30,451 nt of DNA. It comes from a virus. Taxonomy: Duplodnaviria; Heunggongvirae; Uroviricota; Caudoviricetes. The stretch is from IMG/VR virus record IMGVR_UViG_2728369554_000010, positions 1-30,451 of that record. One strand, written 5' to 3'. Below the pieces are notes generated by a model. That model was not told the DNA's origin. It searched no databases and saw nothing but the letters and a program-made list of their open reading frames with translations. The position numbers and the translations under genes are program-made. Positions 1,316-28,700 of the stretch are shown here, one piece after another. Position 1 is the first letter of the stretch, and each line of letters begins with the position of its first letter.

Positions 1316-2056
1316 ATGCTTCATTGGGTTTGTACAAAATGTCAGTCTAAAAATTCTACGAAGGAATCAGTGTGTCCTGCGTGTGGAACTTCTTTTTGGT
1401 CGACGCAGAAAAAAGAAAGGAGAGGGTGTTTATTGTTGGTTGTAATGTTTTTCGTTGTGTTTTGGGTTATTGGGCAATTATCCGGAAACGAATCCGATTC
1501 ACAGGTAAATAATATTCCATCGAAAGATCATATTAGTGATGAACTTGCTTTATCTGGAGTAGACAAGGCGAAACCGTATTCTTTTGTGCGTTATGATGAC
1601 ATAAGTTATGCGGGACGAAAAAGATTTAAGGTTTTTATAGTGTCGCCTGAGTCTCAAGATTTAGAATCAAGAGCTTCGACAGCAATGGCCGCGGCTATTG
1701 AGTGGCAGAAAGAGAAAAGAGCTGACTTTGTATCTGTGTTGCTTCTACCTACGGAAAATTCTGAAGGTAGTTATCGGTTGGCAATGGTTGATTATTCTCC
1801 GGATGGTTGCGGAACTGGTGCTGTATGTGATAATAAAAAATGGACTATATTGTCTAGTGACGTAATATTAACGAAATCGCAACTTCAATCTATATCCTTG
1901 TGGAATGAGTATAAGAAAAAGTTTGCGGGTAATAATGAGATTTTGGATTTAAAGGAAGAAAAGAAATTGAAGCAGTTTATTAGTAAACAGCTAAATATTC
2001 CTGTTAAGGATGTATTTACTCCAGATATTTTTCCTTTAAAGAAAATCGAAGATTAA
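1316..2056 (+). CDS. Hypothetical zinc-ribbon membrane protein (N-terminal C-x2-C...C-x2-C, one TM helix, about 190-aa C-terminal domain)
   Basis: 246-aa ORF with GGAG 8 nt upstream of ATG; CTKCQ...CPACG motif then hydrophobic LLLVVMFFVVFWVIG; strongly AT-rich relative to flank, suggesting horizontal acquisition. Confidence 0.6.
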   Translation: MLHWVCTKCQSKNSTKESVCPACGTSFWSTQKKERRGCLLLVVMFFVVFWVIGQLSGNESDSQVNNIPSKDHISDELALSGVDKAKPYSFVRYDDISYAGRKRFKVFIVSPESQDLESRASTAMAAAIEWQKEKRADFVSVLLLPTENSEGSYRLAMVDYSPDGCGTGAVCDNKKWTILSSDVILTKSQLQSISLWNEYKKKFAGNNEILDLKEEKKLKQFISKQLNIPVKDVFTPDIFPLKKIED

Positions 2057-2103
2057 CAAAATAAATAGACGAGACTGAATTAGTATTATTGTAATCTTTA
2101 ACT

Positions 2104-2165
2104 GGCACCCTCACTTGTGAGGGTGCCAAAAAGAAAACCCGCAGTTTTTACGCTGCGGGTTTCTG
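2104..2165. terminator. Convergent terminator region with two hairpins between the zinc-ribbon gene and the YafO-like gene
   Basis: GGCACCCTCA-CTTG-TGAGGGTGCC, then A-tract, then CCCGCAG-TTTTTAC-CTGCGGG flanked by T run; reads as terminator on both strands. Confidence 0.5.
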
Positions 2166-2182
2166 GGAGAAAATCGGGCTAT

Positions 2183-2563
2183 TTATGAGTTCTGGAATTC
2201 TTCAGCCCGTCTTTCCAGTTCAGCCATGAAAGAAGTTTTGGCTTTTTCGTGAGCATCTGGGGCCATGATGCTGATGATTTGTATATTGTCATAATCCATC
2301 CAGTGCCTTGTATAAACCAGATAGATATTTGAAGTTCTGTCTATTTGGGCTTTGCTTTTCTTCCATGGTGGTTCTGACGGTAGTCTTATGTGTAATTTAT
2401 ATACAAACGAACCACATAATCTTGCGTTATCTTCCCACTGCCCTTCATTGCCGAATCTGTCAGGGAGAACACCGGTATTTAACCAGTTTTCCAGAGCCTT
2501 TCCGTAAACTTTTGCAATGTCCTGGTATTCAACATCTTTATGAATGCTTACTTTGCTTGCCAT
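2183..2563 (-). CDS. YafO-family toxin-like protein
   Basis: 126 aa; motifs GVLPDRFG, HIRL, YLVYTRH, IISIMAPDAHEKAK, MAELERRAEEF align with my recollection of E. coli YafO (GVLPDIFG, HIHL, HLVYCQG, LIAILKPEPHKLAR, MAEAF); start overlaps the upstream stop. Confidence 0.5.
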   Translation of the reverse strand: MASKVSIHKDVEYQDIAKVYGKALENWLNTGVLPDRFGNEGQWEDNARLCGSFVYKLHIRLPSEPPWKKSKAQIDRTSNIYLVYTRHWMDYDNIQIISIMAPDAHEKAKTSFMAELERRAEEFQNS

Positions 2564-3189
2564 CAGGAAAACTCCGGTGCCGGGAGTCCCATGTTTTTAT
2601 GCTCGGCAATAATCATTGCTTTCACATTTCCGTCAGACAGCGTATTGCCCAGGCTGGTTGTTTTGTCTGGTGCGGTGCTTCGTTTGATGGTGTTGATGGC
2701 ATCACGAGCGATAAACTCTCCCTGCGCAATTGCCCGACCAAAACGAACCAGTTTATTGCGATAGGCGATTCTTTGCTCTAGGCTATCCGGATACATTTTT
2801 GCCAGGTTATCCGGATCCATTACAATTTTGACAGCCTCTTTAACACGGGTGTGCTGCTTAATTGACTCTTCGCATATTTTTATGATTTTTGCGGTTTTGT
2901 CAGTAAACAGTGCTCCCTTGCCTCTGTTCTGTCGTTCTTCAATGACTGCATTGAGCGCGGCGCGCATGTTGTCATTCAGCCCGTTGATATATTCAATAGC
3001 TTCTTCGAGAGGCAGAAACACCTGACCATCATGATGCTCAAATGTAAGCATTGAAACCACTCTGGCGTGTGTCGCGGATTCAATAACTGTTGTTGGTAGT
3101 ATCGTGCTTTTAGCTGGCACCGGAGCCAGTGATGCTGTCAGAGCTGTAGTAATAGCAGCAATGGCAGCAGACTTTGATTTTCGTTTCAT
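2563..3189 (-). CDS. Hypothetical signal-peptide (secreted/periplasmic) protein, translationally coupled to the YafO-like gene
   Basis: ORF 2563-3201; preferred start MKRKSKS at about 3189 with GGAG 6-7 nt upstream; N-terminus has basic n-region, Ala/Thr-rich h-region and PVPA-K cleavage-like site; no resemblance to YafN/Phd antitoxins. Confidence 0.5.
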   Translation of the reverse strand: MKRKSKSAAIAAITTALTASLAPVPAKSTILPTTVIESATHARVVSMLTFEHHDGQVFLPLEEAIEYINGLNDNMRAALNAVIEERQNRGKGALFTDKTAKIIKICEESIKQHTRVKEAVKIVMDPDNLAKMYPDSLEQRIAYRNKLVRFGRAIAQGEFIARDAINTIKRSTAPDKTTSLGNTLSDGNVKAMIIAEHKNMGLPAPEFS

Positions 3190-3261
3190 AATGCACTCCA
3201 CAGGTTGATGTGTTCAGCATATCGCAAATAGCAGCTTGTATAAAGAAACGCCACATCAGCA

Positions 3262-3789: not shown

Positions 3790-5487
3790 TCAGGCGATAA
3801 GGTCACCGTATTTTTCGCGCAGGCTCGTAGCCTGTTTGGCGTCTGCGGCAAGTTCGCTGCTGTTTGTTGGTGCGCCGGTGTTGCTGTGGGTGTGGTTTGC
3901 AGTGTGTGTGGCCAGCAACTGAACCAGATCCAGAATATCAATCAACAACGTCAGCAGATTAAGTCCGGATTTTTCCCGTGAGCCACCGCGACCAATAAAT
4001 ACTGTCGGGGCTGTAAACTCCAGACCACCGTCCGCCCGGCATGTTCTGCGGCCTCCCACGTTTTCAGTAAGGTCGCGCTCAATCGTGGATGTCGCCCCTT
4101 TGAGTTTAGTCAGCAAATCCTGCGCTACCATCTGGATATGCTCACCGGCTGCGATCGCATAATGACCAGTAGTAATGTGTTCTGTCTGGCCTGTCATCAG
4201 CTTGCTGGTTCCCAGAACGCTGGTTATGTCGTTTGCCTGTACTGTTGTTGTTCTGGTTGTTGTTGTGCGTTCTTCCTGATCGCTGTTAATGGTTCGTCTG
4301 GCTGAATGCTCCCTGATTTGCTGATCGGTTTCTCTGTGCCAGCTTCCGTCAGTCGTGACGCGCTGAAACACTTCTGCGCGCTGTTGCTGCAGCTGTTCGC
4401 CGGGCTTTACATCAGGCAGGTTATGGCCAGCGGGTAAGATTTGCCTGATAACGGGTTTGTCCGGACGTCCTTCAATGTTGGATATTTCCACGATGGTGCC
4501 TGCCGGTGGGTAGGCAAAACATCCCGCCTCACTGCCAGCCATGGGGACGGGGAGCGGTACTGCCGGGTAAACGGGCGTGTCGCTTTTATCGTTGCCGTTC
4601 TCATCAAGCAACTGCACATCGACGGCGTAGCGTGGGCGGAAACTGTCGGCCACGTCGCCCAGGGTGGTGGGCTCCGTTGGCGCAATGACGCGCGCCAGCC
4701 GGGTATGTAGCGTACCGCTGGCCAGTTCCGGGAACTGTGTTTCCATTTGTCTGCGTAATGGTGATTTGGAAACAGGGTTACCCGTGGCGGTAAGGCGCTC
4801 CCATGTCAGGGTCATTTTCTCGTTGTTGAGGGCTACACGGGTAATGCGCCCGGCCGGTAGGTTCACGCCCGGTCGCACAGTTTCCATAAACATGATGTCG
4901 ATGCTGTTTCCGCCGCTTTGCCCGAGTGTGTACTGTTGCGGAATATCCGGTATTGTAATACTGGCAAATCGTGAATCAGCTGCGCTTCCCACAAATACAG
5001 AACCGTCCGGCATAGGGTGCCAGACGTAATCGCTGATACTGAATGCTCGCCCCAGTTGGCTGAGCAGTTGTGCTCCGCTGCCACTGTGGGTGATGTAGGG
5101 AGTTGGTATACTGGCATAATCCGCATCCGGAGTGATAAAAACGATACCGCTTTGTCGCCCCAGATTATCGAGTACCCCCCGCAACGTCGGGTGTTGCATG
5201 GAGCAAGGGAAATCAAAATCCAGCACAGCAGCCGCTTCACGAATAAAAAGGCGACGTGAGCCATTTTCAGCAGGTTGATCGCGCTCAATGTAGCCGGAGA
5301 AATAGCGCCATGCTTCACCGTCACGGCCGAGATCAATTTGTACCATTGCGCCGGCAAGGCTGTGTTCGGGTGACAGATTGTTAACAGAAATGAAGCCACG
5401 ACCGGCAGCATTCAGGGTAAGAACAAGGCTTATATCGGCAATTTCCACCTGTTCGCCATTAATCATGCAGCGTTGTATCAATTTCAT
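3790..5487 (-). CDS. Phage tail protein, putative baseplate central spike/hub-like (C-terminal HxH apex-like motif)
   Basis: 565 aa; last gene of the late operon, start overlaps upstream stop; C-terminal LLATHTANHTHSNTGAPT resembles the His-rich apex of P2 gpV-type spikes (from memory); function not certain. Confidence 0.4.
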   Translation of the reverse strand: MKLIQRCMINGEQVEIADISLVLTLNAAGRGFISVNNLSPEHSLAGAMVQIDLGRDGEAWRYFSGYIERDQPAENGSRRLFIREAAAVLDFDFPCSMQHPTLRGVLDNLGRQSGIVFITPDADYASIPTPYITHSGSGAQLLSQLGRAFSISDYVWHPMPDGSVFVGSAADSRFASITIPDIPQQYTLGQSGGNSIDIMFMETVRPGVNLPAGRITRVALNNEKMTLTWERLTATGNPVSKSPLRRQMETQFPELASGTLHTRLARVIAPTEPTTLGDVADSFRPRYAVDVQLLDENGNDKSDTPVYPAVPLPVPMAGSEAGCFAYPPAGTIVEISNIEGRPDKPVIRQILPAGHNLPDVKPGEQLQQQRAEVFQRVTTDGSWHRETDQQIREHSARRTINSDQEERTTTTRTTTVQANDITSVLGTSKLMTGQTEHITTGHYAIAAGEHIQMVAQDLLTKLKGATSTIERDLTENVGGRRTCRADGGLEFTAPTVFIGRGGSREKSGLNLLTLLIDILDLVQLLATHTANHTHSNTGAPTNSSELAADAKQATSLREKYGDLIA

Positions 5488-6059
5488 GTTTTCCCTTCCT
5501 CTTTCACGCTCCCGATGCCAACAGCATCCAGACCAGAGCCAACGGCATCATTGATTTTTTTCCAGAACGAACTTTGCGTATTCATGCCTTTGTCTGGTAC
5601 CTGTTCGCTGCCATTCTGGGTCTGCTGTCTGGCGATGGTTTTTTGCGAACCGCTGCGTGCGGATGCTTTCTCTGGCACGCTTAATTTTTCCCTGAGAGTA
5701 AAGGTGATCTGCCAGTGCATTTTTCCCTGTTGTTCCGTGGCATCAATGCCACCAGAAAATACCCCCTGTCGCATATTGATTGCCTTCGCGGTAGCGTTAG
5801 CAATGCGATATGTTTTTTTAGCACCGTTGCTTTCTGTTGCCTCCGCAAGCTGAAAAATACGGGTCAGAATAGCTTCATCGTTAAAATCAATAACCCCCGA
5901 CACGCGCAGCTCTTTAGCCTTGTTTCCCTGCTGGGCGCTCGTGGTGCTGGTTGACTGTCCGGACATATCTTTGTCCGGTAGTTGCATGGTGGCGCTGACG
6001 GTGATGTTACGCAGCAGAATGGCTTCCCCGTCAAGCGCAAGGACAATCATCTGGGTCAT
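5484..6059 (-). CDS. Phage tail-associated protein, function unknown
   Basis: 191-aa ORF whose stop overlaps the spike-like gene start; sits in the tail operon; no motif I can name. Confidence 0.4.
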   Translation of the reverse strand: MTQMIVLALDGEAILLRNITVSATMQLPDKDMSGQSTSTTSAQQGNKAKELRVSGVIDFNDEAILTRIFQLAEATESNGAKKTYRIANATAKAINMRQGVFSGGIDATEQQGKMHWQITFTLREKLSVPEKASARSGSQKTIARQQTQNGSEQVPDKGMNTQSSFWKKINDAVGSGLDAVGIGSVKEEGKT

Positions 6060-6744
6060 GTAGTGCTTCCCTTAGTGATGAGAGATTATCGCCGACGAAC
6101 AGCATCACAGCTGTAAAAACCCACTCGGGGTGTGGGATGTTTTTTTGTATCAGCACTGCAGCCTGGCTAAGGGCTCCCTTGTAGCAAAAGCGCCACACCG
6201 GGCAAACTTTTTGCCGGAGTGCGGCCTGCTGATCAGCGATTTCCTGTAAGGCTTTATCTCTCGCATTCATGAACTGATGCAGCGATGATGACAATGTTTC
6301 CGGTGATGTGGCGGCAGGAGTGGCTGCCTGTGCAATGGTTGCTGCCAGCGACATGCTGCGAGTGGTCTGTGTCGACAGCATTATCGGTTCCGGAAGTGAT
6401 GTTGCCGGTCTGGCGGGGATTTGCATTCTGCTGATGGCCAGTGAAAGTTGACTGGAAATCATGCGGGACATTCGCCCCACCTCTGGCAATGGAAATGCGC
6501 CTGAAAATTGCCTGGCGAGTGATAAAAACTCGCCAGCAGAAGGAGCGCAAAACAACAGCGCCACAATGTCTTTTTCTGTGCTTTCTTTCAGGTAGGGTAA
6601 AAGTGCAGATACAGCATTTTCGGGGCTGAGATAACGCCCCGATGGTTTGATGTTTCCGGTATTTTCTGACCACGGATGAAGACAAACCACAGAACATTTA
6701 ATGTTTATGGCAGACGGACGTAAAATTACCTCTTTCCATTTCAT
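6031..6744 (-). CDS. Phage tail-associated protein, function unknown (Cys-containing motifs)
   Basis: 237-aa ORF; start overlaps the Tfa2 stop (ATGA); contains CSVVC, CPVWRFC and C-terminal DDCPC. Confidence 0.4.
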   Translation of the reverse strand: MKWKEVILRPSAINIKCSVVCLHPWSENTGNIKPSGRYLSPENAVSALLPYLKESTEKDIVALLFCAPSAGEFLSLARQFSGAFPLPEVGRMSRMISSQLSLAISRMQIPARPATSLPEPIMLSTQTTRSMSLAATIAQAATPAATSPETLSSSLHQFMNARDKALQEIADQQAALRQKVCPVWRFCYKGALSQAAVLIQKNIPHPEWVFTAVMLFVGDNLSSLREALHDPDDCPCA

Positions 6745-7313
6745 TCTGCTTTGCCCACCTGAAATGCCCTAATTGCAGCAATGTTATTCAGTGTGGCCAG
6801 CGTGTTTTTCATCTCACGCTGGCGCAGGTAAATCTCATCGTTGCGTGCAGCCTGAGCCTGCACCATTGCCGTAAGTAGTTCTTCCAGCTTTTGTTGTGAC
6901 AATTTAATTTGTTGGTTATTTGCATCACTCCATACTGTGGCATTGTGTGCCACACCAGATTTTGCTGCCATCACTGCCGGGAATAAGCGTTCCAGTGAGG
7001 ATTTTCCTCCATTCCATGTGCTGCTGTTCCATTCGAATGTGAACGGCTGCGCCTCCTGTTCTGTTCGCCAGCGCCTGATTTCCTCTTTTTTCAGTTCTTT
7101 TTCTTTGTCCAGCATCTCTGCTGTTACAGTGAAGGGGATGATTTCACCAAACTCACCGCTCATCAGTGTTCCCCATACCCGCTGGCCTGATGCAGCTGAA
7201 TCATTTTCCACTGCACGATAAGGAATATAATCAGCCCGCCCTTCAAACAACACTTCACAGGAAACAGACCCGTCTTCCAGGTATTTCATCGCCTTTATGT
7301 CGATTATTTTCAT
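6741..7313 (-). CDS. Tail fibre assembly chaperone (Tfa), second copy
   Basis: ORF 6741-7343; preferred start MKIIDIK at about 7313 overlapping the fibre-2 stop (TAATG); size about 190 aa and position immediately downstream of a tail fibre gene. Confidence 0.6.
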   Translation of the reverse strand: MKIIDIKAMKYLEDGSVSCEVLFEGRADYIPYRAVENDSAASGQRVWGTLMSGEFGEIIPFTVTAEMLDKEKELKKEEIRRWRTEQEAQPFTFEWNSSTWNGGKSSLERLFPAVMAAKSGVAHNATVWSDANNQQIKLSQQKLEELLTAMVQAQAARNDEIYLRQREMKNTLATLNNIAAIRAFQVGKAE

Positions 7314-9352
7314 TATTCTGCCCTCATCACCAGGCAAATCCACCAGGCATTGGCTTTATTCCCACAGTTCAGACTCTGACTGGAGCCATTCAGAATAAAA
7401 TAGGACCCCGGCAATAACCCGTACATCATCGATACGTTGTAAACCGATGCCGCTGCGCACGGATTACCATTGTTCTCAAACATAAGCGATACATGCCGTA
7501 ACTTTTCGCCTGATATCCTGTCCCCACGCTTATGTGAGGCAAGGTCAGCGACAGATATTGCTGCCAGTGTGACTCCGTCAATCCCCGGGTTTCCCCAGAA
7601 GTCAGCAGAGCGTAATCCCTTCGCGCTGAGATTTCCCCAGCCAGCCAGACCGGCTCCGGCACTGGTCCATTTCAGCCAGTTGATAAACATTTCTCCCTTC
7701 TTACTCATGAAAATAATGAGCTTGTCTGCACGCGATTGCGAAGACGAGGAGGCTGTATCCGGAATAATAATTTCAACAATCCCTTCCAGACGATTTTCCT
7801 TGTCAATAATCTGAGGCGCGCTATATGAAGTACCGTCTCCTACCGCATACCGGCCCGGTGGTGTAGTGGATACCCAGGAAATAAAATCAGCAGGGCCGTT
7901 TTCTCCCCTGAAAATGACTTTGTCTTCATGTCGGTAATATCCTCCATATCCCAGCGTCCCCGGAATGGCCACCACGCCTTCGCTGCGATCATAAATATTA
8001 TTCTGTGGCACCACAGTGTCTGACCTTTCCAGCTCAAGCACTCTGCGCATATCTTCCGGTGTGGCCTGTGCCAGCAGTGAACGGGCTTCTGGCGTCAACC
8101 GTGTCAGCGATGCGTTCCCGTCCGAATCAAAGTACAGAAGATTATCTGCCTGAGTGTTTAACCTGCTGATGGCGGTTAAAACATCACTAAGTGGCTGTTT
8201 GCCTGCAAGCGCGTTAGTGACCGTCGTTGCAAAATTCGGGTCACTGCCCAGCGCCGCTGCCAGCTCATTCAGTGTGTCAAGGGCTTCCGGAGATGAGCCA
8301 ACCAGTGCAGCGAGCAGTTTGCGGACAAACGCCGCGTTCGCCATCTCCAGCCCGACCGCATCATCCGGTGGGGTTGGTGTGGTTGGCGTACCGGTGAACG
8401 CCGGGCTGTTCAGCGGCGCGCGGGTTTCAATCAGCGCCCTGAGTGAAGCCTCGTTGACTTTCAGGTTTTCCCAGCCAGTCAGCAATCCATTTCCTGTACT
8501 CCAGTAACGGTTGTAATAAATATCACCGTTAATGCCATAGAAAATAATGGCCTTTGCTGTATGTGGTGGCAGAGGTGTGGAGCGTTCTGCTTCCAGCCAG
8601 CGGATACTTATCATCCCCCGGAAGGCGATGCCGGGAAGTACTCCGCTTCCCCCCTCCACATAATATTCTCCGGGTTCCACACATCTTACCCATGCCAGCA
8701 AATCAGCATCGTTGTTAAACCTGACAGCATCACCCGGAATAAAAATATGACCAAAACCAAATGCGCCCGGTATCGCCAGACAACCTTCAGTCCGGTCTCG
8801 AATATCACCCTGTGGCTCCATTATGGCTGAAACTTTCAGTCCCAGATTATCGCGGGATTCCTGTTGCGCCTCTTCGCCTTCTGCTGCAATTTCTGACAGG
8901 TGATTAGGAGTTTTCAGTGCTGTTTTCAGCTCCGGAGTGATATCCACCTGCCAGCTCTGGGGAGGGACGCTGATTTGCGCGGACTGAGCAATGCCTCTGT
9001 AGGTGATTGTAAAATTGCGGACGAGTGACTCACCTGTCGTTTTCTGTCTGACGGGAGTTTTTATTACGCCGCATAACGTTCCGCTGGCCTGATGGATGAG
9101 ACAAATCCAGTCATAACTGAAAACACAGTCATCAGGAACAACGGCGCTGCACACAATAGTGTCCTGGCTTAACTGGCCACAGGTCAGTTCATTCACAGCG
9201 TATGTGATTCTGTCTTCCGGAACGGTATTGTCTTCGCGCGTTGGTTCCCGCTCCATCAGGGCAAAAATAATAGCGTCAGGGCGTGCAGGTAAATTACTGG
9301 AAGTGCATTCAGCAACCCACTTTTCAAATGCTTTTGTTAACAGTGCGCTCAT
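7313..9352 (-). CDS. Tail fibre protein 2 (mosaic; P2 gpH-like collar region plus duplicated distal domain)
   Basis: 679 aa; contains APLNSPAFTGTPTTP...LNELAAALGSDPNFATTVTNALAGKQP matching P2 gpH from memory; N-terminal 150 aa similar to fibre 1; two copies of an about 115-aa domain. Confidence 0.8.
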   Translation of the reverse strand: MSALLTKAFEKWVAECTSSNLPARPDAIIFALMEREPTREDNTVPEDRITYAVNELTCGQLSQDTIVCSAVVPDDCVFSYDWICLIHQASGTLCGVIKTPVRQKTTGESLVRNFTITYRGIAQSAQISVPPQSWQVDITPELKTALKTPNHLSEIAAEGEEAQQESRDNLGLKVSAIMEPQGDIRDRTEGCLAIPGAFGFGHIFIPGDAVRFNNDADLLAWVRCVEPGEYYVEGGSGVLPGIAFRGMISIRWLEAERSTPLPPHTAKAIIFYGINGDIYYNRYWSTGNGLLTGWENLKVNEASLRALIETRAPLNSPAFTGTPTTPTPPDDAVGLEMANAAFVRKLLAALVGSSPEALDTLNELAAALGSDPNFATTVTNALAGKQPLSDVLTAISRLNTQADNLLYFDSDGNASLTRLTPEARSLLAQATPEDMRRVLELERSDTVVPQNNIYDRSEGVVAIPGTLGYGGYYRHEDKVIFRGENGPADFISWVSTTPPGRYAVGDGTSYSAPQIIDKENRLEGIVEIIIPDTASSSSQSRADKLIIFMSKKGEMFINWLKWTSAGAGLAGWGNLSAKGLRSADFWGNPGIDGVTLAAISVADLASHKRGDRISGEKLRHVSLMFENNGNPCAAASVYNVSMMYGLLPGSYFILNGSSQSLNCGNKANAWWICLVMRAE

Positions 9353-9358
9353 TACTTC

Positions 9359-9910
9359 TTAATTCTCGCTAATGTTCTGCGGTAATTCTGGCCATACAAT
9401 CGCGGCATACGATGCTTTATCTGTAACCTGGCTGAATGTCATCTCTCGTAACTTTTTTGTATAAATACGGCAGGCTTTCAGTTTTTCCCTGTCTTCGTCG
9501 CTGATTAATCCCAGCAGCAGGTCTTTTTCCCACTCGCAGGTCATGATACTGAACTGTTTTAACAGGGCATCACGCTCGTCTTCTGCTTTTAATTTGTAAT
9601 CGAAGACAAATTCATCATTGCGGTAAAACCAGTAACCCGGTGCAGTGATGCGGCGGTTAGCGGTAATATCCGGAACTTCAATAACACTGGCATTACGGGG
9701 TTCAATGCCTGTCACATCCTTACCGACCCACACCACGCGCCCGTCCCCGGTGTAAACCATTTTTATTGTGTCGCTGGCAAAGTTCTTCTGTTCTTCATAC
9801 CAGTTTTTGTCGTCTTCCGAAAAAAGCCAGGTGACACCATATTGTTTTGTCATCTGATATTGTTCTGCGGTTTTCGGATTGCCCGCAGTAATATTTTTTA
9901 AATGCAACAT
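9359..9910 (-). CDS. Tail fibre assembly chaperone (Tfa)
   Basis: 183 aa beginning MLHLKNITAGNPKTAEQY, the characteristic Tfa N-terminus; directly downstream of fibre 1. Confidence 0.8.
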   Translation of the reverse strand: MLHLKNITAGNPKTAEQYQMTKQYGVTWLFSEDDKNWYEEQKNFASDTIKMVYTGDGRVVWVGKDVTGIEPRNASVIEVPDITANRRITAPGYWFYRNDEFVFDYKLKAEDERDALLKQFSIMTCEWEKDLLLGLISDEDREKLKACRIYTKKLREMTFSQVTDKASYAAIVWPELPQNISEN

Positions 9911-9912
9911 TA

Positions 9913-11613
9913 TTAAACACTCGCCACGTTATACCAGGTGCCGTTAATCAGTTTCTGAAGCGGTCGGTAATACACGCCGCCGATGTTATCTGCCGAATTA
10001 CTTCCGGTTTCCTGCACATTAATACCAGATAATCCATGGCCTGAAGGTGAGCGAAATGTCCAGGATATCTGGTTACCTCCCGGGTTGTAATACATTTCGG
10101 AACCATAACGCACATCCTGCACGCCGCCTGTTTTGGTCTGGTAACGGGCATCAAAGTTTCCGTAGTCTGACGGTGTTACCCGCCCGGTAACGTTTACAGG
10201 TTTATTACTCTGAATGCTGCCATTCTGAAAACGCAACACATGCACGCTATTGGCATAAACATCCAGCAGGCCATCACCATTCTGTTTCAGGCCGGTATCG
10301 TTATCCCCGAAAGCAATTGAGTTTCCGCCCAGCGCATTCTGAACGCCGATACCCAACGCACCGTTAACTTTCGAACCACCGCCAACAGATACTGCGTGTG
10401 GCATGGAAACTTCACCCGTCCGCAAATTAATAGTGAACGGACGCAGGGGGCCAATATCGCCATTCTCGCCCTGACCTTCACTGGTAGGGATAAGGTGCAG
10501 GCACTCTTCCGAACGACGAAAAATCAGGCCAAAAGCTTCGTTGAAAATCCTCAGTGCATTAACACCACGGATTTTCAGCTCCCCGGTCATGGTGTCGCCG
10601 TCGCGCTCAACAGCGTCTTTTGCTTTATCCATTGCGGCTTTTACTGCCTTTGATGTGGCGGCGCGGTCTTCTGCGTCGCTGTCGGTGGAGTTGCTGTACT
10701 GCGCAAAGCCTTTCTCCTTCAGTGTTGCGTCCGGATGATGGCGGGATTTTTCGTGCTCTGCCAGTGCATTGCTTTGTTCTTCGTCTGGTGTCTCCGGGCG
10801 CAGGTCCTGTGGGCCGTCTCCTGTCATTTTTGCAAGTGGCGCGACAAAGTGTCGGAAGCCGTTACCGTCTGTATAAGACGCATGTTCCTGGCGGGCGCAG
10901 AACGTAAAAACGGTATTCCATTCGCCAGTAACAAATCCCTGCCAGCTTGCATCAATCCAGAGGGTATCCCCGACCGCAGCCGGCAGGCTGTAAGGTTCGC
11001 GCAGACTGACGCGCAGACCTCCCACATAACCCACGCCGGCGGCAACAGTAGCGGTACCGTCCTGATAGCTGACCTGAAAACCATCCCCCAGAAAAGCGGC
11101 TTCACCGTAGTGATCAAACGCCAGCAGCCGGCGGGCCTCATCCATTCCTGCAAGGCGTGCAGTGAAATCAATCTGCCAGACATCAGCGCTGACATCGATA
11201 TGCATTGCTGCGGCTGCGCCGTCAAACTCCATGGAAAATGTGCGGATCAGGTTGTTTCCCTGCACGCCGTTCGCTGTTTTAATTTTTTGCTGACGAGGTG
11301 TGTGTGCAATCATGCAGAGCACGCCGCTTTCTTCGTTCAGCAGACCGATCCAGTTGTATTCGAAGTCGCCGACTGTCGTGTCCAGAATGATGGAAAACGC
11401 GGTCGCGTTCGGCGACAGGAGGCCGTACTGGGTGACCGGCGCACGATACTGAATCATGGATTCATCAGGGAGTATCTCATCGCGGGGGATCTCTGCGGAT
11501 TCATCCTGTCCCGGAATATATGCAAAAACAAATGTATCCGGGCGCGCAGGTTTTCCACTGATGATTTGATTTGCGCACCAGTGTTCGTACTGTTCAGTAA
11601 TAATCGTGCTCAT
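9913..11613 (-). CDS. Tail fibre protein 1 (P2 gpH-like C-terminal region)
   Basis: 566 aa; HEKSRHHPDATLKEKGF, NALGGNSIAFGDNDTGLKQNGDGLLDVYANS, NFDARY and C-terminal INGTWYNVASV closely parallel P2 gpH as I recall it. Confidence 0.85.
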   Translation of the reverse strand: MSTIITEQYEHWCANQIISGKPARPDTFVFAYIPGQDESAEIPRDEILPDESMIQYRAPVTQYGLLSPNATAFSIILDTTVGDFEYNWIGLLNEESGVLCMIAHTPRQQKIKTANGVQGNNLIRTFSMEFDGAAAAMHIDVSADVWQIDFTARLAGMDEARRLLAFDHYGEAAFLGDGFQVSYQDGTATVAAGVGYVGGLRVSLREPYSLPAAVGDTLWIDASWQGFVTGEWNTVFTFCARQEHASYTDGNGFRHFVAPLAKMTGDGPQDLRPETPDEEQSNALAEHEKSRHHPDATLKEKGFAQYSNSTDSDAEDRAATSKAVKAAMDKAKDAVERDGDTMTGELKIRGVNALRIFNEAFGLIFRRSEECLHLIPTSEGQGENGDIGPLRPFTINLRTGEVSMPHAVSVGGGSKVNGALGIGVQNALGGNSIAFGDNDTGLKQNGDGLLDVYANSVHVLRFQNGSIQSNKPVNVTGRVTPSDYGNFDARYQTKTGGVQDVRYGSEMYYNPGGNQISWTFRSPSGHGLSGINVQETGSNSADNIGGVYYRPLQKLINGTWYNVASV

Positions 11614-12245
11614 GCTTCATCTGCCTGTAATGTGTAATGTTCCACGGACAGGCCGTAATGTCCTGCCTGTAGCGAAGCGGTTAACCAGATGGTGTCCTTT
11701 CTCACCGTTGCTTCTGCTGTGTGATACCTGTAATGGCCGTCGAATGTGCTGGCTGTCAGCCGGGCGGTGGTTGTATTGATTACCTGAAAGAAATAGCGCC
11801 TGCAGGTACGGCCATACTGGCGCACGAGCTGCATCATCAGCGCATTGTTTTCACTTAACTGGGTGTCATTAATGCGCAGTAAAATAACGTCCCAGTCATG
11901 CTGCAGCTGCCGTTCCAGTGTTTTAACGTCTCCCACGCCAAGACGCTTAAAGATGCGTTCGAATCCGGCGCGTTCGCCCGAGTCCTGAGCGTTAATAAAC
12001 GCGTGTTTCACCCTTAAGCGAAATAACGAAACCGGCTCCCCTTTAAATCGGGTGATATTGCGCTGATAAGCCAGCAGGTTAAGTAAAGGCTCTGCGCAGG
12101 TGTCGACATCAATCTGCTGTAGTGGCCACGTCAGCCAGCTGTATACCTTTTCCCAGTAGCGATGCGATGAATGTGCCAGCGTTAACGGCTCGCCTTTATT
12201 CATCCAGGTGGGAAGCGGGAATTCAGGGATCTCCGGAAGTTTCAC
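11610..12245 (-). CDS. Baseplate wedge protein, tail protein I-like (putative)
   Basis: 211 aa between J-like gene and fibre, overlapping both (coupled); assignment is mainly positional. Confidence 0.45.
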   Translation of the reverse strand: MKLPEIPEFPLPTWMNKGEPLTLAHSSHRYWEKVYSWLTWPLQQIDVDTCAEPLLNLLAYQRNITRFKGEPVSLFRLRVKHAFINAQDSGERAGFERIFKRLGVGDVKTLERQLQHDWDVILLRINDTQLSENNALMMQLVRQYGRTCRRYFFQVINTTTARLTASTFDGHYRYHTAEATVRKDTIWLTASLQAGHYGLSVEHYTLQADEA

Positions 12246-13426
12246 GCGCTCACCTCCACAGTAAGGGATTCCAGACGGGGAACAGCCAGATCACTGAGAA
12301 TATCCGGAAGAGAAAATGTAACCGACTCCACCTGTGGAAATACCTGGTGGATCTCTTCGCCCAGTCTGGACATGCTGAAACGGCTGTACGGCCATGTTTT
12401 CTGAACGTCATAATCGCTGTTTTCGCGAAATGCACAGCGAACCAGATTTTCCACATTGCGCAATAACGTCTGAATTTCCTCATCGCTGAGGTTCAGCGTT
12501 GCATACAACCAGAGTGTCACAGTCAGGGGGTGGCGTGTTTCAGGCATGGAAAAACAGCGCAGATCATCACCGTGTCCGTGATGACCTTCATCGTTAATGA
12601 ATGCGTTTACGGCATCAACGAACGGTTCGGATGCGATGCCGGTATCCAGCAGAATGTAAGCATTTGCTGTGCCGGGGCCGCGTGGTGCGTCATGCAGAAA
12701 ATAGATGCGGTCGGCACTGATACCGGCAACGCCGGCAATTACCCCCCGGTAAACGGCATCGGTGTGATAAGCGCCGGCAAGATTAAACTGATTGCGAACA
12801 CGATCACGCAGCTCGTCATCGCTTTCTTCGTTGGCACCCGGTGTGGTCAGCCAGTTTTCATCGTTCTCAACACCGGCAATACCATCAATCGCCACCGGAA
12901 GGATGCGGTAATATCCCGGCGCAAGGTTAAAGCCGGCTCCGGCCTGTTCCGCAGAAACATCGATGTTCATGCTGAGTGTTCCTGCCGGAATAACGGTATC
13001 CCTGACAACGGTCAGCGTATAAATCACGCCGTTAATGCGTTCTGTCTGAATCTGCGTACCGGCCGGCACGGTAACTGCGCGATCAATGTCGTTTTTGGTG
13101 AAACGAATCACGCCGGCTGCGTGCGTGGCGGCCTTGCGTTGCAGGTTTACCGCCCAGGCAAAAACATCAACGAATACACCGCTGGCATCAGCCAGAAACA
13201 GGTTTTTCATCACCACATTAACCAGCGCATCTTTCAGCCACATCACGGGTTTTGTGGTGATAGCTGTAATCAGTCGCCAGAACGGTGACATGCGGGATGT
13301 GTTGGTGATAAGCCCTTCGTCTTTGACAATGGCTTCAAATTCAGCGCGCGCCTGTTCTTCTGTTACCGGCATGCCGTTATCAGCCAGAATGCGCTCGTAA
13401 TCTGCGGTAGGTTTGCCGTTAATCAT
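12242..13426 (-). CDS. Baseplate J-like protein
   Basis: ORF 12242-13429 (TTG at 13429, ATG at about 13426); about 394 aa with acidic ESDDELRDR segment typical of baseplate J family; position upstream of I-like and fibre genes. Confidence 0.55.
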   Translation of the reverse strand: MINGKPTADYERILADNGMPVTEEQARAEFEAIVKDEGLITNTSRMSPFWRLITAITTKPVMWLKDALVNVVMKNLFLADASGVFVDVFAWAVNLQRKAATHAAGVIRFTKNDIDRAVTVPAGTQIQTERINGVIYTLTVVRDTVIPAGTLSMNIDVSAEQAGAGFNLAPGYYRILPVAIDGIAGVENDENWLTTPGANEESDDELRDRVRNQFNLAGAYHTDAVYRGVIAGVAGISADRIYFLHDAPRGPGTANAYILLDTGIASEPFVDAVNAFINDEGHHGHGDDLRCFSMPETRHPLTVTLWLYATLNLSDEEIQTLLRNVENLVRCAFRENSDYDVQKTWPYSRFSMSRLGEEIHQVFPQVESVTFSLPDILSDLAVPRLESLTVEVSA

Positions 13427-13768
13427 CAAGAGATACCGTAAAAGTCAGGGGTTCAAAAAAATCTTCGGTGTGGGCGCTAATCAGCAGGCGACCAGAAAGC
13501 GGGGTTTCTTCTGTCACACTGACCGTGCCAGGTGTGATGCGCTCATCATCTTCAATCAGCAGTGTCATCTGCATCATGATGTCGGCACGAAGCGTCGGGC
13601 TTTTTTCAGCCAGCAGGCGCGTTGCCAGTCCGCTCTCAATGATGGCGTGCTGGCAGTCCTGGGCAATACTTTCCCTGTTGTTGCATAACACTGGTTCACT
13701 GGCGCTGTTCAGCGTGAGATTGCGGCCGGTGATGAGCAAATCAATGTAAAGCGGTTTATCAGTATGCA
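13419..13768 (-). CDS. Small baseplate-position protein (gpW-like position), function uncertain
   Basis: ORF 13419-13895 overlaps the tape-measure 3' end; internal ATG (MHTDKPLYIDLL) at about 13768 gives about 116 aa starting just after the tape-measure stop. Confidence 0.35.
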
Positions 13769-15855
13769 TGCAGCTCCATCCACTCGTTAAGACGGGCAGG
13801 GGATGGATCCTGCACATTGACGTTGACCACACGACGGGAGTTGTCGATTGTGGTCTGGTTTTCGCTGTTGTTCTGCATTTCTGCCGCAATGCCACCCGGC
13901 CCCGCGCTGATGGCTTTACCGCCGGTTAATACGGAGCCTTCGCCACTTCCTGTGCTTTCTGATGTGCCGATGTTAACGCCGGGGATCATGTTGAGTTTGC
14001 CCACAATCCAGCCCCATGAATCACTGAAGGACTGTTTCACCAGTTCCCAGAGATTACTGAAAATCTTCAGTATGCCGCCGGCGAGATCCTTCAGGGCATC
14101 CAGTGGTGAATGGGTGGAAAAATAGTTAACCAGTGCATTCCAGCCGTCCTGGATTGTGTTCCATGCATTGCCGAACCATGCCCCCATACTGCCGACCATT
14201 TCAGCCACCCACTGAAAGGCGGCGGTATCCATCAGCGCGGCTTTAATCTCATCCCAGCGGGTGATCAGGAAATAAATGCCCACGCCCAGCGCAGCCAGTG
14301 CCAGGATGATTAATGTGATGGGGCTGAAAAGTAACTGTGTTGCAATTGCAGCTCCGCTGGTGACTGCGGTGTAGATTTTCATTGCTATGCCGGCGGCACC
14401 CAGCGCAACAGAATAAAGCCAGAGTCCGGCGCGCTGTAATTTCAGCAGCGCCAGCTGAATTTTTGCTTTGACGTTGTATGTTCCCATAGCAATAGACATG
14501 GCCAGATACAGCGCCCTGACCGTTCGGGCAACTACAGTGAATGCCCACATGGTAGCCGTCAGTGTGCGTTTCAGCAGAATGAGAATCTTCAGAGGTGTAA
14601 CTGCTGCCAGCCAGACCAGCCGCAGTCCTGTCCAGACAAACTTCGCCACACCCACCATAATGTTGACAACGGCACCCACTGCGGCAATGCCCAGCAGGGC
14701 GGCAGACAGTAAACCAATAGCCCGTGTGATATTGGGATACAGACGTAACCAGGCAACAAAGGATTTACCGCCTTCGTTGCTTTTCTGGATAAACGGGTAC
14801 AGAACAGGCAGCAACTGCGTGCCGATTTCGATGCGAATGCCGTTAATAATTGCGGCGGCCTGTTCCCATGGATCAACCATGGCCTGCGCCATTTCGACAG
14901 CCTTATCCATACCTTTGATATTGCCCAGCGTGGCGATATTCTTTTCAAGTCCGCCAATGTCCGCATTGAGTAATTTAATCATGGCCACAGCTTCATCGGA
15001 GCCAAAGGCGCTTTTCAGCAAATCGGAATCAGCCACTTTTGACAGATCACCAAATTTGCCCCTGATAAGTTTCATGATCTCGACAACACTTTTCATCGTG
15101 CCGTCTTTATTCACGAAATTAAGCCCCAGCTTTTTCTGGGCGCTGCCTACTGCGGCAAGAAATGCCTTGTACTTTGTCCCGGCCTCGCTGCCACTCATGG
15201 TGGCCTGCAGTTGTCCCAGCACGGCGAACTGTTCAGCCGCATCAATACCGGCCGCTTTTGCACTGGCACCCAGCGTGGTGAACGCCGCTGACATGTTATC
15301 GCCGGTTGTTTTAAACATTTGCACGGCGGTGGCGGTTTGCCCGGCGACCTGCTCCACCCATTTGCTTTTTCCCATGGCATCAGCCTGGTCTTTAAAGATG
15401 CCGTACATGGTGCCCATGTAGGCGGTAATGGTCTGGCTGCTGGATTTGGTTGCTGCTGCCACCGTTGCTGATGCGGTGGTGAAGCGGGACAGCTCATCGT
15501 CAGTTAACCCGGCAATGGCTGACTGGATGTCGTAAGAAGCACGCACAAAATCCTGCGCAGCCCCGCCGTATTCCATAGTGAAATCAACGGCGGCGCGGCT
15601 GAGTTTACGCAATCCGGACTCTGCGACGCCCAGTGATTTCACCTCACCGAGCGCCCTGTCCATTTCAATGGCTGGCATCAGTGCCCCCTGAATGGCTGCA
15701 CCCACTCCCCAGAGCGCAGCGCCTCCGGTAGCAATGTCCCGAAAGGCTCCCCGACTTGTTGCAGCAAATCCCTGAACCTGTCGCCCGGCTGCACGCAACG
15801 GCCTTGTCAGGCGGTCTGTCAGTTCAAGAAGTAATTCAAGGCGCTGTTGTGACAT
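13759..15855 (-). CDS. Tail tape measure protein
   Basis: 698 aa, Ala/Gly-rich with central hydrophobic segments; immediately downstream of the frameshifted chaperone pair. Confidence 0.8.
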   Translation of the reverse strand: MSQQRLELLLELTDRLTRPLRAAGRQVQGFAATSRGAFRDIATGGAALWGVGAAIQGALMPAIEMDRALGEVKSLGVAESGLRKLSRAAVDFTMEYGGAAQDFVRASYDIQSAIAGLTDDELSRFTTASATVAAATKSSSQTITAYMGTMYGIFKDQADAMGKSKWVEQVAGQTATAVQMFKTTGDNMSAAFTTLGASAKAAGIDAAEQFAVLGQLQATMSGSEAGTKYKAFLAAVGSAQKKLGLNFVNKDGTMKSVVEIMKLIRGKFGDLSKVADSDLLKSAFGSDEAVAMIKLLNADIGGLEKNIATLGNIKGMDKAVEMAQAMVDPWEQAAAIINGIRIEIGTQLLPVLYPFIQKSNEGGKSFVAWLRLYPNITRAIGLLSAALLGIAAVGAVVNIMVGVAKFVWTGLRLVWLAAVTPLKILILLKRTLTATMWAFTVVARTVRALYLAMSIAMGTYNVKAKIQLALLKLQRAGLWLYSVALGAAGIAMKIYTAVTSGAAIATQLLFSPITLIILALAALGVGIYFLITRWDEIKAALMDTAAFQWVAEMVGSMGAWFGNAWNTIQDGWNALVNYFSTHSPLDALKDLAGGILKIFSNLWELVKQSFSDSWGWIVGKLNMIPGVNIGTSESTGSGEGSVLTGGKAISAGPGGIAAEMQNNSENQTTIDNSRRVVNVNVQDPSPARLNEWMELHAY

Positions 15856-27277: not shown

Positions 27278-27592
27278 TCACTTCGGGAAAAACGCCTGAA
27301 TATTCTTTTTCACCTGCTGCATATGGGGGGCGCTGTCTGCTGCTGGTTGCGCCGGTTTTTCAGGCTGTACTGGTAGCGGTGGCATCCGTATTTCGTCTTC
27401 TGACCATTCTGCCAGCGAATACGCCAACGCGGGGGTGCGTTTTATAAGAGCCAGTCCGGCCAGAAAAGCCGCGCGTTGTGCGCGGCTGCGTTCGGAGGCT
27501 GGCAGGCTGTCGAGGTAACTGCACGCCTCCCGTTCGCTCTTGACGACGGCGGGCTTCAGATAGAAACTTATCCGTCTGGTTGGTGTCGTCAT
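27278..27592 (-). CDS. parR: ParR-like centromere-binding partition protein
   Basis: ORF 27278-27721; preferred start MTTPTRR at about 27592 with AGGAG inside the parM 3' end; ISFYLKPAVVKSEREACSYLDSLPASERSRAQRAAFLAGLALIKRTP parallels plasmid R1 ParR as I recall it. Confidence 0.6.
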   Translation of the reverse strand: MTTPTRRISFYLKPAVVKSEREACSYLDSLPASERSRAQRAAFLAGLALIKRTPALAYSLAEWSEDEIRMPPLPVQPEKPAQPAADSAPHMQQVKKNIQAFFPK

Positions 27593-27596
27593 TGAT

Positions 27597-28556
27597 TTAC
27601 TCCTTGTCCATTGCGTACAGCCCATTAACCAGAGCAAACTGTGGCACCCCGTCCGCGATGAAAGTCGCATTAACTCCGCAGGCTTCGCGGATAGCGGGTG
27701 CCACAATCTCTGCCCCTCCACCTACAACCATCACCCGCCCGTAACCCGAAAAACCCGCCAGCGCGCGGATCACGCGTTGTTTCAGTGTTTCTTCCTTTTC
27801 ACGAATAACAGCCATCAGGCTGGCGTAATGTGCGTTATTGTGGATGTGCTGGCGCAGCCAGGCTTCATCGTGGCGATGTTCGATAATGGTATTGGCGATG
27901 TGGTGACTGGTGCGCATACCGTTAGTGGCCATTACCGACAGTACGGCATCGGCCATCAGGGAAACGCCTACGTGTGGATCGCAAAACACCTGGCTGATAC
28001 CTGCCAGTTGCCCCTGAACCTTTGCCACATCCAGCGTGGTTCCGCCCAAATCCACAATCAGCAGGGATTCAAACGGACTCATGTCAGCCAGTGCTTTAAA
28101 GCCAGCCGGAATGGATTCAGGCATAACCCGCACGTTACGGATAGTGAATGCCTCGCCGTTCTGGTACTCCACCGGGCGCATAACGTTCGCTTTTTTGCGG
28201 TTGATGTTGGCCATGTCCGGCTGTGCGTTTGTGTCGAAATACTCGCTCAGTGGCAGGGTGACAACCACATCCACCTCCTGTGGCGTGATGCCTGATTTGA
28301 CCAGCGCATGATGAATGGCAATGACATTCACATCGCTGTACTGGTATTGCGTGTCGGTCGTCTGGACAAAGCGATCGCTGACCGGATCAAAACCATAGCG
28401 CACGCCATCAAGCATGTAGTTCGCGGGCTGCGTGCCACCGAACGGCGCAGACCATTCTGACTTGAAGCTGTTCGGGCTGATGGCGTTGCGGCGTTCGCCG
28501 TTCTCAGTCCATGCCAGCTTGATGTTGGTGGATCCGTCGTCGATACAAATTTTCAT
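27597..28556 (-). CDS. parM: ParM/StbA-family actin-like plasmid segregation ATPase
   Basis: 319 aa; MKICIDDGSTNIKLAW...ISPNSFKSEW...YQYSDVNVIAIHHAL...LLIVDLGGTTLD...VMVVGGGAE parallels plasmid R1 ParM along its length (from memory). Confidence 0.8.
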   Translation of the reverse strand: MKICIDDGSTNIKLAWTENGERRNAISPNSFKSEWSAPFGGTQPANYMLDGVRYGFDPVSDRFVQTTDTQYQYSDVNVIAIHHALVKSGITPQEVDVVVTLPLSEYFDTNAQPDMANINRKKANVMRPVEYQNGEAFTIRNVRVMPESIPAGFKALADMSPFESLLIVDLGGTTLDVAKVQGQLAGISQVFCDPHVGVSLMADAVLSVMATNGMRTSHHIANTIIEHRHDEAWLRQHIHNNAHYASLMAVIREKEETLKQRVIRALAGFSGYGRVMVVGGGAEIVAPAIREACGVNATFIADGVPQFALVNGLYAMDKE

Positions 28557-28574
28557 GTCGCTTTTCCTTATGTT

Positions 28575-28700
28575 GATTAATTAATCGGTTACAGGATTTT
28601 TAAATCCCGTTTTCGCCTGTTTTGTGCGCGCTTCATATATCACGGCGCGTTTTTTGCTCATTTACGGGATTTGTGAATCCTGTTTTTGTCTGTTTTTTGT
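28575..28700. repeat. Centromere/operator-like repeats upstream of parM: GATTAATTAATC palindrome plus two about 38-bp direct repeats each with GGATTT-N3-AATCC
   Basis: Palindrome about 20 bp upstream of parM ATG; repeats TTACAGGATTTTTAAATCCCGTTTTCGCCTGTTTTGTG and TTACGGGATTTGTGAATCCTGTTTTTGTCTGTTTTTTGT about 73 bp apart, the second inside the 3' end of gene A. Confidence 0.4.

Follow-up and report, generated by a model that had tools for sequence, protein, structure and literature searches.

HP1-like phages of the family Peduoviridae, including HP1, HP2, YenM_324, SI7, ESSI-2 (ESSI2_ev040), phiO18P, F108 and PV94, arrange their late tail genes in a common order, from tape measure, DUF2590, gpJ-like and gpI-like genes through fibre and chaperone to orf33, ORF34 and orf35, and carry one tail fibre anchored through a PF12571 domain. 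Engineered killing particles that can be retargeted are built mainly on P2/HP1-type tails and their tailocin relatives, and the working assumption for this chassis is one fibre type with one N-terminal anchor. Here we describe the fibre block of an Escherichia coli prophage held in a stretch of DNA of 30,451 nucleotides (IMG/VR record IMGVR_UViG_2728369554_000010, positions 1 to 30,451; the whole stretch is called the window below). The late tail operon of this prophage follows the same order as in the HP1-like phages. However, it differs from theirs in holding a second fibre and chaperone module and in encoding a baseplate wedge protein, gpI, with a C-terminal SVEHYTLQ tail, neither of which is present in the HP1-like phages.

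The same gene layout in the same orientation, J - I - fibre - Tfa - fibre - DUF4376 (where Tfa stands for tail-fibre assembly protein), is found in phiP27, Rac-SA53 and pPE4. The tip of the first fibre in the window (fibre 1) and its Tfa (Tfa 1) are 59-85% identical to their counterparts in these three phages, while the DUF4376 protein is 53-57% identical and the distal part of the second fibre (fibre 2) is 30-48% identical in local alignments. In phiP27, Rac-SA53 and pPE4, however, the second fibre begins with a lambda-Stf-type N-terminus (MSVVISG..., with matching proteins carrying PF08400) that is unrelated to the anchor of their first fibre, whereas here the PF12571 anchor of the first fibre has a paralogue on the second. 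The tail and baseplate genes of these three phages are also of another type, those of phiP27 being Mu-like DNA-circularization, hub and wedge genes. The fibre block of the pPE4 record (PP818812.1, 'Actinobacillus phage vB_Apl-pPE4', L001 among our loci) shares 89.5% DNA identity with the E. coli prophage in the window. The fibre region of pPE4 (J, I, both fibres and the DUF4376 gene) is also closely like that of the E. coli phage Rac-SA53, which is surprising for a phage recorded for Actinobacillus pleuropneumoniae.

Other phages are known to encode two fibres by different means. The G segment of Mu and the C segment of P1 likewise contain two fibre-chaperone pairs (S-U and S'-U') with different receptor specificities. 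In those segments the pairs are mutually inverted, have a single constant N-terminal exon in common and are switched by the invertases Gin or Cin, so that only one pair is made at a time (PMC11821841). The modules in the window, by contrast, are both complete and point the same way, with an anchor for each, and the open reading frames (ORFs) scanned include no invertase. Phage Sf14 resembles the prophage here in its minimal wedge of Mu/P2 type, which in Sf14 holds more than six fibres; its two fibres come from adjacent genes and have related baseplate-binding motifs (PMC11821841). Unlike the prophage here, Sf14 is a virulent FelixO1-like phage and has no Mu-type fibre chaperone genes. Pam3 differs in using one fibre gene in two positions, and the fibres of Sf14 and Pam3 show no sequence relation to the anchors described below. 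Lambdoid Stf side fibres have distal parts like that of fibre 2, and in phage records homologous side fibres precede DUF4376 proteins. These side fibres differ from fibre 2, however, in their length of about 1030-1050 amino acids, in their PF08400 anchor and in their usual occurrence in lambdoid prophages, whereas here the tip is grafted on an HP1-type anchor. The literature searched contained no description of a two-fibre P2/HP1-family prophage; phages with multiple receptor-binding proteins in general were found (PMC11990801, PMC11821841).

The two fibre modules in the late tail operon

Fibre 1 (566 amino acids, 9913..11613), Tfa 1 (183 amino acids, 9359..9910), fibre 2 (679 amino acids, 7313..9352) and a gene called Tfa 2 in the sequence-only reading of the window (190 amino acids, 6741..7313; 'Tfa 2' below) all lie on the minus strand. 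That reading had taken both fibre genes and both partner genes to be complete and the two modules to be co-directional, and we can confirm both points: the four ORFs run uninterrupted at these coordinates with no undetected frameshift. The start of 'Tfa 2' is taken as the ATG at 7313, an in-frame GTG at 7343 being less likely. The start of fibre 1 overlaps the stop of gpI, which places fibre 1 directly after the gpJ-gpI wedge genes, and fibre 2 lies one gene pair further downstream of them. A gap of 2 nucleotides separates the fibre 1 stop from the Tfa 1 start (TAAtaATG), and a gap of 6 nucleotides separates the Tfa 1 stop from the fibre 2 start (TAAgaagtaATG). The fibre 2 stop and the 'Tfa 2' start overlap in TAATG, with GAGGG upstream, and the 'Tfa 2' stop in turn overlaps the orf33 start in ATGA. 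Each partner gene is thus coupled to its fibre as had been proposed, by the 2-nucleotide gap in the first module and by the TAATG overlap in the second.

The same close packing extends through the operon: from the tape measure down to the baseplate gene orf35 the genes are all co-directional, with stops and starts overlapping or nearly abutting. Between the two modules we found no strong terminator, just weak, intragenic terminator-like consensus matches, and no sigma-70-like promoter on the coding strand. The proposal that both fibres could be expressed agrees well with a single operon that has no strong terminator at the inter-module junctions, and this arrangement of the genes strongly implies that the two fibres would be co-expressed.

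The two fibres were also said to be similar over about 150 N-terminal amino acids and to differ distally. Both statements hold. A BLASTP comparison gives 30% identity over 217 amino acids (E = 1e-21), and both N-termini score above the PF12571 cut-off, whereas no significant similarity remains past about residue 215. None of the four proteins matches an NCBIfam family.

Anchors, tips and chaperones of the two slots

Fibre 1 consists of a canonical HP1-type PF12571 anchor (residues 1-157), a fibre repeat and a Mu-S-like distal receptor-binding region. Its anchor matches PF12571 with an E value of 2.1e-29 and a score of 102.9 bits against a gathering cut-off of 23, and the protein also matches PF03406 and PF20744. 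The distal region matches PDB entry 5yvq, the tail fibre protein S of Mu (E 1.6e-19). This anchor is 40-50% identical to those of HP1, YenM324, SI7 and phiO18P, and among the lineages of dual-fibre relatives the fibre 1 anchors are 78-91% identical. Slot 1 appears to be the conservative one. Tfa 1 matches PF02413 (Caudo_TAP, E 2.7e-20, 73.3 bits) and phrog_136, and is 85% identical to the Tfa of pPE4 and 69% identical to L55 of phiP27. These matches make it a predicted tail-fibre assembly protein of the classical kind, serving fibre 1.

Fibre 2 is a chimera. Residues 1-145 form a divergent PF12571 anchor, which matches the family with an E value of 3e-08 and 34.2 bits against the cut-off of 23; the slot-2 variants in relatives all pass this cut-off as well. 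Two knob-like repeats follow at about residues 160-305 and 445-580, which are 33-34% identical to one another, and between them, at about 305-445, lies a widespread collar repeat of P2-H/lambda-Stf type. A C-terminal tip completes the protein. Over residues 160-679 the protein is 45-60% identical to more than 100 E. coli PF08400 'prophage tail fiber N-terminal domain' proteins, that is, side fibres of lambda-Stf type. A sequence search of PDB returned just a collar-repeat match, 9d93. We considered and rejected the possibility that fibre 2 is a pseudogene, as RefSeq/PGAP has it in EC42405 and E7-1N7, where the annotation breaks the gene into pseudogene fragments, with 'shikimate transporter' as the name of one, since translation of the DNA gives intact ORFs. 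An identical and intact fibre 2 ORF is present at 23816-25852 of L002 (corresponding to 7313-9352 of the window), although RefSeq marks it as a pseudogene, and at L035 3999-6245 RefSeq/PGAP pseudogene fragments are likewise laid over an intact second fibre. The pseudogene calls are therefore annotation artefacts where checked, because the ORFs translate intact. The 'shikimate transporter' misnomer is also attached to many lambdoid side-fibre proteins at NCBI.

The claim that both partner genes encode Tfa proteins stands for Tfa 1 only. The 'Tfa 2' protein matches PF14301 (DUF4376) over residues 71-176 with 48 bits against a cut-off of 25, has no PF02413 match and shows no sequence relation to Tfa 1 (best E = 9.2); a PDB sequence search gave no match for it. 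By these family assignments it is a predicted chaperone of DUF4376 type rather than a Tfa (Caudo_TAP) paralogue. A DUF4376 gene stands right after a fibre gene also in Rac-SA53, phiP27, pPE4, SerU-LTIIb, Av-05 and Yersinia kristensenii, and the homologues of 'Tfa 2' invariably come after fibres of the lambdoid side-fibre type. Proteins with this domain have been found to be needed for fibre function in two cases, gp27 of Alteromonas phage V22 (PMC7289586, PMC10579305) and the partner of the H-fibre of Campylobacter CJIE1 (PMC7882524).

The anchors of fibre 1 and fibre 2 are 30-36% identical to each other. Fibre 2 anchors form a separate clade, being 53-81% identical among themselves and 20-40% identical to all others, and are marked by two characteristic deletions. 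Both paralogues share the motifs PARPD and SG(V/T)LC, the latter with its cysteine, which are absent from other HP1-like anchors. These shared motifs suggest, without proving, that the anchor was duplicated inside the dual-fibre lineage. Pairwise Nei-Gojobori estimates of the ratio of nonsynonymous to synonymous substitution rates (dN/dS) over 12 relatives are 0.04 for the fibre 1 anchor and 0.12 for the fibre 2 anchor, the latter spanning lineages with dS above 1, compared with 0.05-0.06 for gpI and orf34. Ratios of this size indicate purifying selection, so both anchors have been maintained by selection, but at the protein level the fibre 2 anchor changes about 5 times faster (dN 0.147 versus 0.027). 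Across 14 sequences, and confounded by linkage, the divergence of the fibre 1 anchor shows a Spearman correlation of 0.91 with that of gpI. The fibre 2 anchor, on the same 14 sequences, gives 0.62 with orf34, 0.57 with orf33 and 0.15 with its neighbour Tfa 1, and does not track the middle region of fibre 1. As a separate observation, both anchors contain cysteines: within the first 145 codons fibre 1 has C13 and C100 and fibre 2 has C16, C58, C68, C76, C84 and C94. One cysteine pair aligns in SG(V/T)LC, and the anchors of HP1, YenM324, SI7 and phiO18P have zero cysteines. The Pam3 fibres are reported, in what PMC11821841 says of them, to be disulfide-bonded to the wedge.

The two-fibre layout is not peculiar to this prophage. 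The order J-I-fibre 1-Tfa-fibre 2 is present in 13/13 related loci that span the whole block, which come from IMG/VR prophage contigs and E. albertii, and it is also found in a more distant Y. kristensenii prophage and in the prophage of E. coli E7-1N7, whose fibre 1 anchor DNA is just 72% identical. The fibre 1 anchor DNA occurs in 52 and the fibre 2 anchor DNA in 49 of 5426 complete E. coli genomes (47 and 48, respectively, at a coverage of at least 80%), and about 48 of these genomes keep the dual layout. On the other hand, all 45 phage records with an HP1-type anchor hold exactly one copy of it. Six of the seven HP1-like phages examined (HP1, YenM324, SI7, phiO18P, ESSI2_ev040 and PV94) have only one fibre gene in the stretch that separates gpI from the downstream baseplate genes, and the seventh, F108, has two annotated fibre ORFs at that place with one anchor-type domain only. 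The two-slot layout is thus a fixed trait of an undescribed lineage of enterobacterial prophages that is absent from the sequenced HP1-like phages. A word-indexed protein search that used just the fibre 2 anchor as query gave only 13 short proteins, so the wider spread of this anchor subtype is under-sampled; a scan of genome contigs gave E. albertii alone.

Slot 2 varies far more among relatives than does slot 1. Its distal parts range from 350 to 842 amino acids, and very different distal modules are found in L015 (6809-8668), L020 (7726-9282), L021 (8230-9282), L025 (6754-9282) and L006 (7307-9247). Some of the variants are followed by a DUF4376 gene. Several others lack a chaperone gene of their own and end alike at the C-terminus, in ...TTLRQNGMG, a sequence that might act as an intramolecular chaperone. 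The N-terminus of the orf33-like protein changes along with the slot-2 cassette. Slot 2 appears to be a rapidly exchanged cassette, with tips borrowed from the E. coli prophage pool.

How a minimal baseplate might carry two fibres

The explanation that we consider probable is that the block provides two receptor-binding slots in series, both fibres being made and docked on the baseplate to give dual specificity. The late tail transcript would yield both fibres together, and each fibre trimer would be folded by the chaperone encoded just downstream of it. Each fibre would then use its own anchor paralogue to dock, with the two kinds probably occupying non-equivalent positions on the gpJ/gpI wedge. 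The result would be a 6 + 6 fibre arrangement like the one described on the simple baseplates of Sf14 and Pam3, and the virion would thereby bear two receptor specificities. As the sequence-only reading had suggested dual specificity, we infer co-display on the virion and dual receptor use indirectly, from the single operon, the lineage-wide conservation of the layout and the purifying selection on both anchors. The structure of Shigella phage Sf14 has two fibre sets on a simple Mu-like baseplate (PMC11821841), and cyanophage Pam3 carries 12 fibres at two non-equivalent wedge positions, as cited in the same paper. A 6 + 6 arrangement is therefore physically plausible, because the simple wedges of Sf14 and Pam3 hold more than six fibres. 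A candidate for a second docking element is the extra C-terminal tail of gpI, ...LQAGHYGLSVEHYTLQADEA (window 11610-11670, minus strand), which has the pattern ...LQ(A/G)G.(Y/F)..SVEHYTLQ.... It is present in five of five dual-fibre lineages and in none of seven single-fibre HP1-like phages, whose gpI ends 9-37 residues earlier, but this candidate is phylogenetically confounded with the second fibre. Distinct docking sites are also favoured by the separate clade of the fibre 2 anchors, with its two deletions, and by their faster change in the same prophages. More tentatively, and as a possibility on which we would not rely, the minimal gpJ-gpI wedge may carry twelve fibres of two kinds, the duplication and divergence of the anchor together with the new gpI tail having created a second docking site that serves as a universal socket.

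Several observations weigh against two docked fibres and should be set beside these arguments. Since the gpI tail is found together with the second fibre in a single clade, the two count as one evolutionary event and give no independent support, and gpJ, orf33, orf34 and orf35 are of the same size as in single-fibre phages and contain no extra domain. The AlphaFold2 monomer model of fibre 2 is poor, with a mean predicted local distance difference test (pLDDT) score of 52 and only residues 210-300 reaching 74-83, and a Foldseek search of this model against PDB returned nothing under E = 0.1. In L006 and L024 slot 2 consists of a 285-amino-acid anchor protein and a separate ORF of 352 amino acids. 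In the Y. kristensenii locus (L032, 8001-9721) the second fibre is split into a 200-amino-acid anchor protein and a 340-amino-acid distal ORF in another frame, followed by a DUF4376 gene, and would be a pseudogene with a frameshift or else a true fibre in two parts. These split ORFs indicate that slot 2 can decay or be two-part. Furthermore, no deposited phage among 50,697 phage records resembles the late region, which has no cultured representative among them.

If both fibres are expressed, their homologous anchors might instead compete for the same six sites and give mosaic virions or a mixed population, a form of bet-hedging. The unchanged sizes of the wedge proteins J, orf33, orf34 and orf35 would fit such competition, as would the membership of both anchors in one Pfam family and their common motifs PARPD, (N/D)WI(G/C)L, SG(V/T)LC and WQ(I/V)D. 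We regard it as unlikely, although it deserves to be taken seriously. The anchors are only 30-36% identical, that of fibre 2 has the two deletions, and a lineage-specific gpI tail exists. Moreover, an identical docking interface is hard to reconcile with a fibre 2 anchor that diverges about five times faster when the gpI and gpJ facing both anchors are the same and nearly invariant. Another way of joining two fibres is branching, in which fibre 2 would sit on fibre 1 or on bound Tfa 1 rather than on the baseplate, as LtfB reportedly does on LtfA in DT57C and as is said of the stacked tailspikes of other phages with multiple receptor-binding proteins. Fibre 2 does always come directly after the fibre 1-Tfa 1 pair, and pPE4 and Rac-SA53 share with the prophage here, at 83-90% nucleotide identity, a block that starts in the fibre 1 C-terminus, takes in Tfa 1 and ends in the fibre 2 collar. 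This shared DNA first led us to consider a fibre 2 N-terminus that moves together with Tfa 1 and the tip of fibre 1, but we downgraded the idea when the shared part of fibre 2 proved to be the central collar repeat; the DNA shared with pPE4, Rac-SA53 and phiP27 excludes the fibre 2 N-terminus, which is of lambda-Stf type in those phages. Homology links the fibre 2 anchor to a baseplate anchor and to no known branching domain, and its divergence shows no link to Tfa 1 or to the middle of fibre 1, all of which makes branching improbable.

Nor do we think it at all probable that fibre 2 and its chaperone are not virion parts but a silent reservoir of tips for recombination or a decaying duplicate. 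The split slot 2 of some relatives and the pseudogene fragments marked by RefSeq in several genomes would speak for this, but the pseudogene calls were artefactual where checked, and the anchor keeps its dN/dS of 0.12 over lineages with dS above 1. The start/stop coupling to Tfa 1 and orf33 is also kept, and fibre 2 must be transcribed through because orf33-35, which are required for the baseplate, lie downstream. Finally, the modules might alternate through an unrecognised switch like the G segment of Mu or the C segment of P1. Mu, P1 and some P2-like phages classically rely on alternative sets of fibres, and the fibre 1 tip is related to Mu S. Invertible switches of this kind, e14 P among them, are recognized by an adjacent invertase of the Gin/Cin/Pin type and by crossover repeats around opposed exons. 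Neither feature is found here, where both modules point in the same direction on one strand. Searches with Pfam and PHROGs gave no invertase or recombinase domain in the fibre-block genes and the scanned flanking ORFs, and the RefSeq annotation of the same prophage has no invertase next to the fibre genes. Inverted repeats do not exceed chance, the best being 27 nucleotides at 74% complementarity, and the fibre genes contain no homopolymer, short tandem or slippery tracts. Together with the lack of an internal promoter or strong terminator, these results leave a switch very improbable, and they bear out the sequence-only reading in its view that the modules are not an invertible system. Two slots in series, both filled, thus remain the explanation that we prefer.

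Prophage setting and implications of the second slot

The fibre block belongs to a prophage whose late genes lie on the minus strand and which adjoins raiA in strain EC42405 (NZ_CP043414), where it is 99.7% identical to the one here. Five complete E. coli genomes hold chromosomal prophages that match a 10-kb stretch around the block at 99.3-99.7% identity. The late genes include the HP1-like succession of PF10761 (DUF2590), PF04865 (Baseplate_J), PF09684 (Tail_P2_I), fibre and then, past the fibre block, PF25759 (HP1_ORF34) and phrog_2258 (orf35), and they are colinear with those of HP1, YenM_324 (Yersinia), SI7 (Salmonella) and phiO18P (Aeromonas). We read the region as the receptor-recognition block of an HP1-like temperate myovirus that is integrated in E. 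coli and belongs to the family Peduoviridae without being P2 itself. Upstream in the same operon and on the same strand lie the tape-measure gene (13759-15855), the gene for the DUF2590 protein (PF10761), which falls between the tape-measure and gpJ-like genes, the gene for the gpJ-like baseplate wedge protein directly upstream (395 amino acids, 12242..13429; PF04865, E 9.2e-32) and that for the gpI-like wedge protein (211 amino acids, 11610..12245; PF09684, phrog_1228). The first gene past the fibre block encodes an HP1 orf33-like protein (237 amino acids, 6031..6744, minus strand; phrog_31292 and phrog_1677), the position of which matches HP1 orf33 and YenM324 gp33, the latter being annotated as 'structural protein'. 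It is followed on the minus strand by genes for a baseplate complex protein of HP1 ORF34 type (191 amino acids, 5484..6059; PF25759, E 2.5e-53) and an HP1 orf35-like baseplate protein (565 amino acids, 3790..5487; phrog_2258 'baseplate protein', E 2.8e-232), the latter being the final gene of the tail operon. The orf35-like protein contains a weak VgrG-like stretch that scores far under the curated cut-off.

The early region of the prophage (window 27278-30451) encodes a gpA-type replication endonuclease and a plasmid partition pair, ParM and a StbB-like protein. The early region (replication and ParM) is about 96% identical to P88-like phages of the P2 family and is the sole part that matches deposited phages. 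With a P88-like early region and a late region that has no close deposited relative, the prophage is a mosaic drawn from two lineages of Peduoviridae, and its partition genes hint at a possible plasmid-like state. Cargo genes at the prophage end, beyond the tail operon (window 1316-3201), include a gene for a DUF4875/zinc-ribbon protein on the plus strand (1316-2056) and a YafO-family toxin gene (2183-2563). A 212-amino-acid ORF at 2563-3201, upstream of the toxin gene, has no Pfam match and could be its antitoxin partner.

For annotation, the block illustrates that RefSeq mislabels intact second fibres as pseudogenes or as 'shikimate transporter' fragments. A natural lineage that duplicates its anchor and has two fibre slots would show how a minimal baseplate holds a second receptor-binding protein, and the second anchor, possibly with the gpI tail, would serve ready-made in designs of dual specificity. 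If the more tentative idea of a universal socket is true, this socket takes the tips of lambdoid side fibres together with their chaperones, which are swapped at high frequency, and the lineage keeps a constant 'core' receptor beside a second, rapidly retargetable one. For phage ecology, the lineage offers a clear case of one conserved and one hyper-mosaic fibre in a temperate phage.

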